From Escherichia coli (GTDB taxonomy: Bacteria > Pseudomonadota > Gammaproteobacteria > Enterobacterales > Enterobacteriaceae): a stretch of 64,000 nucleotides of DNA. The first letter of the stretch is position 1. The number at the start of each line of letters is the position of its first letter. A program made the position numbers and the translations under genes. A model generated the notes under the pieces. That model did not search any database, was not told the origin of the DNA, and was given only the letters and a program-made list of their open reading frames with translations. The DNA is taken from assembly GCF_003018255.1 (NCBI RefSeq), contig NZ_CP027440.1. One strand, given 5' to 3'. Shown here piece after piece: positions 7,418-20,599 of the stretch.

Positions 7418-7498
7418 CGGGCGGATAAGGCGTTTTTGCCTCATCCGCCGCTCTGTACACAATGCCTGATGCGACGCTGGTGCGTCTTATCATACCTA
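7418..7498. repeat. REP-like palindromic elements downstream of proX
   Basis: Two GC-rich imperfect palindromes (gcggataaggcg...cgccgcatccg type and gcctgatgcgacgctggtgcgtcttatca) in the proX-ygaY spacer. Confidence 0.6.
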
Positions 7499-16154: not shown

Positions 16155-16227
16155 TGAAAGACGCGCATTTGTTATCATCATCCCTGAATTCAGAGATGAA
16201 ATTTTGGCCACTCACGAGTGGCCTTTT
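16155..16227 (+). ncRNA. micA: MicA (SraD) small regulatory RNA
   Basis: Matches remembered MicA sequence GAAAGACGCGCAUUUGUUAUCAUCAUCCCUGAAUUCAGAGAUGAAAUUUUGGCCACUCACGAGUGGCCUUUUU; divergent from luxS; 3' hairpin plus U-run. Confidence 0.85.
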
Positions 16228-18857: not shown

Positions 18858-19004
18858 GGTCTTCTCGCAAGTCGAAAAATATGACGCTACTTTAGCGTAA
18901 TTGCTTGATTTTGTCGCTGATGGAGAAGGAGAAGAAAATTCAGGAAATGGATAAAGTAGTTATTTAGAAATGAGATATTTTTGAAGGAAATTTTTTGGAG
19001 AAGA

Positions 19005-19137
19005 TGGTGCATCCGGGAGGATGACTCACTGGCGTTCGCCCTTCGGGCCGCTGCTGGCGCAACGTTATCCTCCCTGGTGCCTGCGGTTAATACCGCTACC
19101 TCTTCGATACCTTCATTGCTGAAGGTTACGGAGAATA
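19005..19137 (-). repeat. tRNA-Arg 3'-end-derived hairpin repeat (pseudo-tRNA fragment), copy 1
   Basis: Plus strand begins with the 17-nt tRNA-Arg 3' end incl. CCA (TGGTGCATCCGGGAGGA) then diverges into GGGAGGAT...ATCCTCCC inverted repeat; about 90% identical to copy at 19558-19691. Confidence 0.7.
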
Positions 19138-19214
19138 TGGTGCATCCGGGAGGATTCGAACCTCCGACCGCTCGGTTCGTAGCCGAGTACTCTATCCAGC
19201 TGAGCTACGGATGC
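19138..19214 (-). tRNA. argQ: tRNA-Arg (anticodon ACG)
   Basis: 77 nt; reverse complement matches remembered E. coli tRNA-Arg(ACG) incl. CCA; gene name by position is tentative. Confidence 0.9.
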
Positions 19215-19277
19215 ATTGGGAAAATTTATTTTACTGCTGATATTGATATCGCTACTAAAGCCATATCAAGTAAGAGA

Positions 19278-19354
19278 TGGTGCATCCGGGAGGATTCGAA
19301 CCTCCGACCGCTCGGTTCGTAGCCGAGTACTCTATCCAGCTGAGCTACGGATGC
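19278..19354 (-). tRNA. argZ: tRNA-Arg (anticodon ACG)
   Basis: Identical 77-nt copy; name by position tentative. Confidence 0.9.
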
Positions 19355-19416
19355 ATCGGGAAATTTATTTTACTGCTGATATTGATACCGCTACTAAAGC
19401 CATATCAAGTAAGAGA

Positions 19417-19493
19417 TGGTGCATCCGGGAGGATTCGAACCTCCGACCGCTCGGTTCGTAGCCGAGTACTCTATCCAGCTGAGCTACGGATGC
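19417..19493 (-). tRNA. argY: tRNA-Arg (anticodon ACG)
   Basis: Identical 77-nt copy; name by position tentative. Confidence 0.9.
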
Positions 19494-19557
19494 ATCTGGA
19501 AACTTACTTTACTGCAGATTTTTTGATACCGCTACTAAAGCCGTATCAAGTAAGAGA

Positions 19558-19691
19558 TGGTGCATCCGGGAGGATTACTCGCCTTGCGGCTCGCCCTTCG
19601 GGCCGTTGCTAAAGCAACGTTATCCTCCCTGGTGCCTGCGGTTATTACCGCCACCTCTTCCATACCTTCATCGCTGAAGGTACGTAGAATA
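19558..19691 (-). repeat. tRNA-Arg 3'-end-derived hairpin repeat (pseudo-tRNA fragment), copy 2
   Basis: Starts with TGGTGCATCCGGGAGGATT then diverges; same inverted-repeat core (cgcccttcgggcc ... atcctccc) as copy 1. Confidence 0.7.
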
Positions 19692-19768
19692 TGGTGCATC
19701 CGGGAGGATTCGAACCTCCGACCGCTCGGTTCGTAGCCGAGTACTCTATCCAGCTGAGCTACGGATGC
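19692..19768 (-). tRNA. argV: tRNA-Arg (anticodon ACG)
   Basis: Identical 77-nt copy; name by position tentative. Confidence 0.9.
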
Positions 19769-19771
19769 AAA

Positions 19772-19864
19772 TGGCGGTGAGGCGGGGATTCGAACCCCGG
19801 ATGCAGCTTTTGACCGCATACTCCCTTAGCAGGGGAGCGCCTTCAGCCTCTCGGCCACCTCACC
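19772..19864 (-). tRNA. serV: tRNA-Ser (anticodon GCU)
   Basis: 93 nt; reverse complement matches remembered tRNA-Ser(GCU) with long variable arm and CCA. Confidence 0.88.
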
Positions 19865-20145
19865 ACACGCCTCTTACGAGTGCTTCGAAGAACTTGTTTA
19901 TCGCTCATCGTCGCTGCGTGGCGCACATATTACTTTCTGAGACTTATAAGTCAAACAATTTTTCCCACACTTTTATCGTTTGCACACTTCACGCTCAATT
20001 AGTCTGTAAAAACGTCAAAAAGAGTGTTTTATCAACAGAAAAACGGAGGTCTGTCAGATAGCAGTAATGCAAAAAAATGGAGACTTAAGTTGAATGAACG
20101 GGAGTAAAGCGAAAAGACAATGGAGTGAAGAAGAAATTTTGAGGG

Positions 20146-20179: not shown

Positions 20180-20365
20180 TTAGTAACTGGACTGCTGGGA
20201 TTTTTCAGCCTGGATACGCTGGTAGATCTCTTCACGGTGAACAGAAACTTCCTTCGGGGCATTTACGCCAATACGTACCTGGTTGCCCTTTACCCCTAAA
20301 ACTGTCACGGTGACCTCATCCCCAATCATGAGGGTCTCACCAACTCGACGAGTCAGAATCAGCAT
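20180..20365 (-). CDS. csrA: carbon storage regulator (RNA-binding global regulator)
   Basis: 61-aa [64 protein letters not shown]. Confidence 0.97.
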
Positions 20366-20599
20366 TCTTTGCTCCTTGAAAGATTAAAAGAGTCGGGTCT
20401 CTCTGTATCCCGGCATTATCCATCATATAACGCCAAAAAGTAAGCAATGACAAACACATTACATCTAAGCAGTCATGGCATTACATTCTGTTAAACCTAA
20501 GTTTAGCCGATATACACAACTTCAACCTGACTTTATCGTTGTCGATAGCGTTAATGCGAATGCCGTGAAGCGAGTCCACGGCATTGCCTGACGCTTATA

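Follow-up and report, generated by a model that had tools for sequence, protein, structure and literature searches.

The window, a 64,000-nucleotide stretch of Escherichia coli DNA, contained the serV-argV-argY-argZ-argQ operon on the minus strand (positions 19005–19864), flanked by csrA and yqaB. The first gene of the operon was tRNA-Ser(GCU), serV (19772–19864), which was found by ARAGORN and by the Rfam tRNA model (56.8 bits) and was annotated by RefSeq in an identical genome. It was followed on the same strand by four tRNA-Arg(ACG) genes, which were identical to one another. The first of these (19692–19768), the positional equivalent of argV, and the last (19138–19214), the positional equivalent of argQ, were each supported by ARAGORN, Rfam, and the RefSeq annotation. 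The second gene (19417–19493) and the third (19278–19354) were found by ARAGORN and Rfam. When compared with K-12, the third gene was followed by a spacer of 63 nt at the place where K-12 has the element raZ. A promoter-like site (TTGACT, 16-nt spacer, TAATAT) was located upstream of serV (19927–19954, minus strand), and a terminator-like hairpin, ACGCUAAAGUAGCGU followed by CAUAUUUUUC, was located on the minus strand at 18884–18898. Both sites were pattern matches from consensus scans; the former is probably the operon promoter, and the latter possibly forms the end of the operon transcript. The RefSeq genome was identical over the 1101 bases compared, with the same tRNA genes annotated and the intervals between them left blank.

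Two related elements occupied part of this unannotated sequence. Copy B (134 nt; 19558–19691, minus strand) was located inside the 198-nt gap behind the first Arg gene, and copy A (133 nt; 19005–19137, minus strand) was located in the 3′ trailer of the operon, with the terminator-like hairpin ~107 nt past it. Each element began one base past the CCA of a genuine tRNA-Arg(ACG) gene, and the boundaries proposed in the first-pass annotation were exact for both. Each element terminated in an exact repeat of the last nucleotides of tRNA-Arg, CCA included, as had also been noted, with a length of 19 nt in copy B (19558–19576, minus strand) and 18 nt in copy A (19005–19022, minus strand). The 18-mer ATCCTCCCGGATGCACCA occurred six times in the window, always on the minus strand, at the four tRNA 3′ ends and at 19005–19022 and 19558–19575; it was absent from 100 shuffles. 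The spacer past the CCA of copy B (UCUCUUACUUGAUAC) was the same as the spacer past the real tRNA-Arg genes. The two elements were close copies of each other, with an identity of 87.4% (118 of 135 aligned columns), slightly lower than the value of about 90% given earlier.

Neither copy was called by ARAGORN or the Rfam tRNA model as a cloverleaf with D, anticodon, and T arms. A plus-strand "tRNA-Arg(tcg)" reported by ARAGORN at 19677–19748 was rejected as an artefact, antisense to a real gene. The open reading frames overlapping copies A and B were mechanical ones running through the tRNA genes, with no counterpart of the tpr frame of tyrT among them, and the promoter and terminator scans gave no site inside either copy.

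The long inverted repeat reported in the first-pass annotation, GGGAGGAT...ATCCTCCC, was found in both copies. A repeat search with default settings returned no inverted repeat for the elements because the arms are interrupted, and the helix became visible on folding. The minus-strand RNA of copy B had a minimum free energy of −63.0 kcal/mol (z = −6.4) and that of copy A −56.2 kcal/mol (z = −5.0), with none of 200 shuffles equally stable in either case, in agreement with the earlier proposal of a minus-strand hairpin ending in the acceptor 3′ strand and CCA. The plus strand folded with about the same stability, and the strand was therefore set by the tRNA genes, not by folding.

The predicted fold of the Arg elements was composed of two distinct parts, a 5′ region with two hairpins and a 3′ minihelix domain. 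In copy B, hairpin 1 was formed by CGUACCUUCA-GCGA-UGAAGGUAUG (19661–19684, minus strand) and hairpin 2 by GCGGU-AAUA-ACCGC (19638–19651, minus strand). The RNAalifold pairs 42–45 with 52–55, which belong to hairpin 2, included two-sided changes. In Enterobacter, Citrobacter, and Pluralibacter, a hairpin of different sequence occupied the place of hairpin 1, and both 5′ hairpins were retained outside Escherichia despite sequence change. The minihelix domain of copy B comprised 78 nt (19558–19635, minus strand) and was supported by the fold, the consensus fold, and pair counts. Its 5′ strand, GCACC-A-GGGAGGAU, paired with AUCCUCCC-GG-A-UGC, which left ACCA-3′ single-stranded and enclosed a cassette of three small hairpins. 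This closing helix was predicted to contain 13 bp with two one-base bulges. Because it is built from the T-stem 3′ and acceptor 3′ strands of tRNA-Arg, it resembles a stacked acceptor/T-arm minihelix, with the three hairpins at the position of the T loop.

The cassette of copy B (19581–19619, minus strand) consisted of CGUUGC-UUUA-GCAACG, GCCC-GAA-GGGC, and GCC-GCAA-GGC, the last of which was variable. In copy A, the corresponding minihelix domain had 76 nt (19005–19080, minus strand) and its third hairpin was weaker (ACGCCAGUG). The cassette was common to the repeats behind Tyr, Lys, Pro, and Ser tRNA genes and only the last 18–19 nt were derived from tRNA, so that the earlier description as a pseudo-tRNA fragment was an overstatement. 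Mismatches in the helices were present in copy A and in the K-12 elements raQ and raZ; these fit weak selection on each copy, and they would also fit the decay of a once-functional element.

The elements are almost certainly known tRNA-linked repeats (TLRs). TLRs were first seen in 1978 by Egan and Landy, and 22 copies at 10 K-12 loci were catalogued by Rudd in 1999 and in EcoGene (all as cited in PMC8144298, published in 2021). A TLR is defined by its last 18–19 bp, which repeat exactly the 3′ end of the gene directly before it (PMC8144298). Copies A and B were both located directly behind a stable-RNA gene on the same strand and ended in an exact tail of 18 and 19 nt, respectively. The K-12 locus contained three elements, behind argV, argZ, and argQ. 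Of these, the element behind argV shared 99.3% identity with copy B, and that behind argQ shared 97.0% identity with copy A. From position and identity, we therefore infer that copy B is raV and copy A is raQ, with the names assigned to the K-12 elements by their positions. The first-pass annotation had thus described the anatomy correctly and missed the named family, of which raV, raZ, and raQ belong to this operon.

The strain under study carried two copies, compared with three in K-12, and raZ behind the third Arg gene was absent. The K-12 raZ was a hybrid in which the 5′ half resembled raQ and the 3′ half was identical to raV. The search for the element beyond the window, as suggested in the first-pass annotation, gave these K-12 orthologues and matches throughout E. 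coli and in other genera of Enterobacterales. The Arg-specific 5′ part was found in 5258 of 5426 complete E. coli genomes (97%), at 1–6 places in each (median 3), never on plasmids and never annotated. In the literature searched, no expression data were found for raV or raQ, and matches to the arg gene names were papers at the level of the tRNA. The TLRs in tRNA operons have no known function (PMC8144298), although they were described more than 45 years ago. The elements are real, as first observed, and already catalogued.

To describe the family outside E. coli, one genome per species was scanned with an exact 19-nt core motif, which gave at least 120 loci. About 35 of these, located in coding DNA from unrelated bacteria with a high GC content, were discarded as chance matches of a motif that is itself GC-rich. 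Among the matches listed, 88 elements from Enterobacterales, Gilliamella, and Photobacterium were kept. All 88 were directly downstream of a tRNA gene on the same strand, and all 88 ended in an 11–20 nt (mostly 18–20 nt) copy of the 3′ end of their own upstream tRNA. The upstream gene was Arg-ACG for 18 elements (mostly 132–136 nt), Tyr for 28 (172–180 nt), Lys for 32 (about 99, or 154–170 nt), Pro for 8 (160–168 nt), and Ser, in Photobacterium, for 2 (175 nt and longer). The core was also found behind tRNA-Arg(CCG) in Marinobacterium and Amphritea; these loci were outside the 88 because the copied tail was shorter than the required match length. The Amphritea element scored 66.6 bits against the Rfam RtT model.

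The 5′ strand of the closing helix was specific to the tRNA type, with CAGGGAGGAT in Arg, GGGGAAGGAT in Tyr, and CGTGAAGGAT in Lys elements. At least 9 of 10 closing-helix pairs were formed in 78% of the elements among the matches listed, compared with 3% of shuffles. In the alignment of the short Arg and Lys elements, 96% of cells were paired, compared with 27–54% when the partner strand was slid, and four pairs were changed on both sides. In Hafnia, the change of the 3′ strand from CCUCC to CUUCC, which belongs to the tRNA T stem, was matched by a change of the 5′ strand from GGAGG to GAAGG. The likeness of the 5′ strand to the acceptor and T-stem 5′ strands was considered as a sign of descent from a deleted tRNA copy and was rejected as uninformative, since pairing with that 3′ sequence imposes such a likeness on any strand. 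At this operon, the architecture was conserved over the range from Escherichia to Hafnia and Brenneria. Across many genera, therefore, the family rule holds and the closing helix is tRNA-like. Furthermore, the cassette core was identical from Escherichia to Photobacterium and Gilliamella in the exact 19-nt motif search. This conservation is more than a neutral by-product should keep and is partly built in by the search, since the motif contained cassette hairpins 1 and 2 and their invariance follows in part from it.

Taken together, we propose that the two elements are TLRs of the Arg operon that are transcribed with it and excised as by-product RNA, and we consider this account as a whole, including the by-product reading, to be probable. 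Both elements would be co-transcribed with the serV-argVYZQ tRNA genes, since they lie between or after these genes, on the same strand, and without a promoter of their own. The RNA would contain the two 5′ hairpins, followed by a domain of 76–78 nt imitating the acceptor and T stems of tRNA-Arg and ending in ACCA-3′. By analogy with tRNA maturation, the tRNA 3′-end machinery would act on the copied tail, with an RNase E cut just downstream and exonuclease trimming to CCA; this is suggested by the identity of the last 18–19 nt to tRNA-Arg and, in copy B, by the identical spacer. The product of each element may be a discrete, stable, exonuclease-resistant RNA of ~133 nt, as judged from the relatives, and RNase P might cut further at the foot of the minihelix. 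The earlier suggestion of processed, tRNA-like small RNAs holds for the relatives RtT and RrB, which are released from their precursors, and would extend to the Arg elements by analogy.

The closing helix may also have a local role. It would sequester the duplicated tail, which could otherwise pair with the 5′ halves of nearby tRNAs, and because it blocks such mispairing it would be favoured in any case; this could explain the maintenance of the helix by itself. In the DNA, repetition of the unit made of a tRNA gene and an element would drive unequal recombination, and recombination between the repeats could account for the variable copy number (two here, three in K-12) and the hybrid raZ. The Arg elements are most likely tolerated by-products that are disposed of by the tRNA processing machinery.

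The elements could instead be functional trans-acting sRNAs, which would be released from the tRNA transcript and report tRNA-operon transcription, and thus growth rate, through binding of a protein or an RNA. The models would be the 3′ trailer of leuZ, which sponges sRNAs, and the 5S-linked relatives RrA, RrB, and RrF. The latter undergo processing, and Hfq and CsrA bind them in vitro (PMC8144298), which indicates that exaptation occurs in the TLR family, and the conservation of the cassette sequence across several orders, the compensatory changes in the hairpins, and the presence of the elements in 97% of E. coli genomes point in the same direction. However, all 19 TLRs of tRNA operons scored below 0.01 in a CsrA-binding predictor, the one functional claim for RtT, a starvation phenotype, was later retracted, and the published strain table lists a strain without all 22 TLRs, including "argY/Z/Q, raQ/Z/V" (PMC8144298). 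The copy number of 1–6 and the helix-breaking mismatches in individual copies also argue against a functional RNA, which we regard as rather unlikely. Explanations at the level of DNA, without constraint on the RNA, would take the elements as scars of unequal crossing-over among tRNA genes or of a site-specific integration at the T loop that left a 3′ fragment of ~18 nt. The T loop, in which the direct repeat of 18–19 nt starts, is also the starting point of the att cores used by tRNA-targeting integrases. In addition, raZ is a recombinant of raQ and raV and the copy number is polymorphic, so the part of the first-pass annotation that spoke of relics of recombination is supported by the chimeric middle copy of K-12 and the range of 1–6 copies in E. 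coli. A scar free of constraint is contradicted by the tRNA-matched strand: upstream of the cassette, this strand differs from one tRNA type to another in such a way that the helix is preserved, which a scar would not do. Two-sided changes were also found in cassette hairpin 3 and in the 5′ hairpins, and, as noted above, the architecture at this operon is conserved from Escherichia as far as Hafnia and Brenneria. No integrase or island accompanied the elements, which are only 99–180 nt long, and the interval, unlike that of an attachment-site remnant, was 115 nt of structured non-coding sequence in which RefSeq annotates no gene. Such relics are thus an improbable explanation.

An action in cis, in which the elements would aid processing or folding by separating the tRNAs, or would tune transcription of the distal Arg tRNAs as a pause site or partial terminator, might be expected from strong hairpins between genes and from the long-type relatives, whose units open with a terminator-like hairpin and a U run. 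However, no U run follows the hairpins of the Arg elements, and the terminator scan gave no match within the elements. In the strain under study, two of the three inter-Arg gaps contain no element, and the placement of the elements differs between this strain and K-12 around the same four tRNA genes, which makes a cis function very unlikely. The three-hairpin cassette might alternatively be a small module, mobile or insertional, with hairpin loops as its landing sites, and TLRs would be tRNA-like minihelices that acquired it. The same cassette was located behind tRNAs of five kinds, with flanks that matched the tRNA in each case, and also within an ERIC-like dispersed repeat of Dickeya oryzae with no tRNA nearby. 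Transposition machinery and target duplication were not evident, and cassette variants from different genera grouped according to their tRNA type, a pattern that points to ancient vertical inheritance. Movement of the cassette would need no mobility function if recombination took place through the universal GGTTCGAATCC in the T arms of tRNAs, and a mobile module has very little probability.

With the by-product reading preferred for the Arg elements, the cassette itself deserves separate consideration. It comprised ~45–55 nt, arranged as CGYUGC-loop-GCARCG, GCCC-GAA-GGGC, a variable hairpin, and GAGUMA, and related matches were found in Oceanospirillales genera. It is conceivable, if unlikely, that the cassette is a unit in its own right, either a module for binding protein or RNA that is carried on a tRNA-like minihelix or an insertional module of hairpin loops, and that the repeats are not mere debris. 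If the binding module were true, the cassette would be produced in step with transcription of the tRNA operon. As a discovery, the elements carry little weight, since they are catalogued and a published strain table includes a K-12 strain that lacks all 22 members. The comparative picture, composed of the tail match, the 5′-strand match, and the conserved cassette, leads to testable predictions of RNase E and RNase P cut sites.

When the elements were compared with the Rfam RtT family (RF00391), copy B scored 29.2 bits, or 34.7 bits with the alignment cut at the 5′ end, and copy A 23.5 bits, against a threshold of 45. In the scan of the whole window at gathering thresholds, neither element was matched, and the RtT matches appeared only in permissive searches. 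The Arg element aligned to positions 46–130 of the RtT model (E = 1.4e-05), which is the 3′ half of the model and contains the cassette and the tRNA tail. The Rfam RtT model was built from the longer units of the tyrT type; for this reason the arginine copies carry no RefSeq annotation, and they will go on being "re-discovered" in sequence scans.

The K-12 TLRs raV, raZ, and raQ are the closest known counterparts of the two elements. They share the locus, the position behind argV and argQ, the 18–19 nt copy of the tail, and 97–99% identity, and the differences are the absence of raZ from the strain under study and a few point differences.

The RtT RNA of tyrT (rttR; RF00391), the most familiar member of the TLR family, which scored 134 bits against the RtT model and carries the RefSeq label "RtT sRNA", is released from the tyrT transcript (Bosl and Kersten 1991, as cited in PMC8144298). 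Like the Arg elements, it is located behind a tRNA, ends in a 19-nt copy of the tRNA 3′ end, and has a closing helix complementary to the tail. The cassette, ...CGUUGC-loop-GCAACG-R-CCCGAAGGGCGA-hairpin-GAGUAAUCC, including the GAGUAAUCC junction, is also shared. However, the tail of the tyrT RtT is that of tRNA-Tyr, with the matching 5′ strand GGGGAAGGAU. RtT units are longer (172–180 nt) and contain two extra hairpins within the closing helix, one T-arm-like hairpin and its inverted copy. In the Arg elements these inner hairpins are missing, and two hairpins unrelated to them are located outside the helix. In addition, RtT overlaps the small ORF tpr, whereas the Arg elements contain no credible ORF.

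RrA, RrB, and RrF are the TLRs behind 5S rRNA in rrnA, rrnB, and rrnD. Each repeats the 3′ end of the stable RNA upstream of it, in this case 5S rRNA, and it is by this definition that they belong with the Arg elements. RrB begins 3 nt past the 3′ end of 5S rRNA and terminates 3 nt past the repeat; both ends were attributed to RNase E (PMC8144298).

The lysT-valT operon contains short Lys-tRNA repeats that carry an Rfam-derived annotation as RtT sRNA; these repeats exceed the Rfam threshold (55–61 bits) only because the match runs into the real tRNA-Lys. They are ~99 nt long, compared with 133 nt, lack the two-hairpin 5′ region, and have a closing helix that matches tRNA-Lys (CGTGAAGGAT / ATCCTGCACG). 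As in the Arg elements, this helix leads directly into three hairpins, and their cassette (GGATAACGTTGC...GAGTCATCC) is near-identical to that of the Arg elements.

The element behind argZ in K-12, the middle copy (L002:1642-1776; L-numbers denote loci in other genomes, with positions within each locus), was a chimera, in which the 5′ 60 nt resembled the argQ-linked copy and the 3′ half was identical to the argV-linked copy. The closing helix of this element, formed by the 5′ strand and the copied tRNA 3′ tail, contained two mismatches, and the element had an MFE of -50 vs -63 kcal/mol.

A terminator-like hairpin plus a U run stood at the start of each long-type repeat linked to a Lys, Pro, or Ser tRNA (L015:317-1679, L017:2034-2501, L020:1006-1173, and L117:3003-3177). 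In Klebsiella and Pantoea, these repeats were arrayed in tandem as 156-nt units. Therefore, each unit can be described as a "terminator plus repeat". A hairpin composed of the 5′ half of a T arm and its inverted copy lay within the closing helix of these repeats. The short Lys-linked repeats of the E. coli lys-val tRNA operon (L064:2266-2433 and 2489-2655) scored 55-61 bits with the Rfam RtT model (RF00391), above the threshold of 45 bits, only because the match extended into the real tRNA-Lys gene, the T arm of which was aligned to the 5′ part of the model. As a result, the 166-170 nt "RtT sRNA" annotations in such operons overlap a tRNA.

In the window, the ARAGORN "tRNA-Arg(tcg)" at 19677-19748 on the plus strand was rejected as an antisense artefact; it overlapped both the genuine tRNA-Arg gene on the minus strand and the end of the repeat at 19558-19691. 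The weak Rfam "Plastid-ycf2" matches, present opposite each of the tRNA-Arg genes on the plus strand, were artefacts of the same kind. The sole other Rfam matches in the window were the MicA sRNA (16156-16227, plus strand, 83.9 bits) and a REP-derived, naRNA4-type match (7419-7496, plus strand), which barely reached the threshold (60.0 vs 59.5 bits).

The csrA gene (20183-20368, minus strand) was located directly upstream of the serV-arg tRNA operon, an adjacency that is probably a coincidence. The 5S-linked relatives of the repeats, RrA/RrB/RrF, bound CsrA in vitro, and the tRNA-operon repeats were predicted to be non-binders (PMC8144298).

In Dickeya oryzae, the hairpin cassette (AACGCTGC-TT-GCAGCG, GCCCGAAGGGC, GGCCC...GGGCC, GAGTAAC) was found (L029:1318-1336, L030:1034-1052, L031:1887-1905, and L032:2008-2026) within a dispersed repeat of ~330 bp. 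No tRNA was found in the vicinity of the copies at these four loci. Four copies were present among the matches listed, one of which lacked a further 71-nt internal segment. The ends of the repeat were inverted (TATACCC...GGGTATA), and its middle part was similar to the ERIC consensus. The cassette may be common to the tRNA-linked and ERIC-type repeats.
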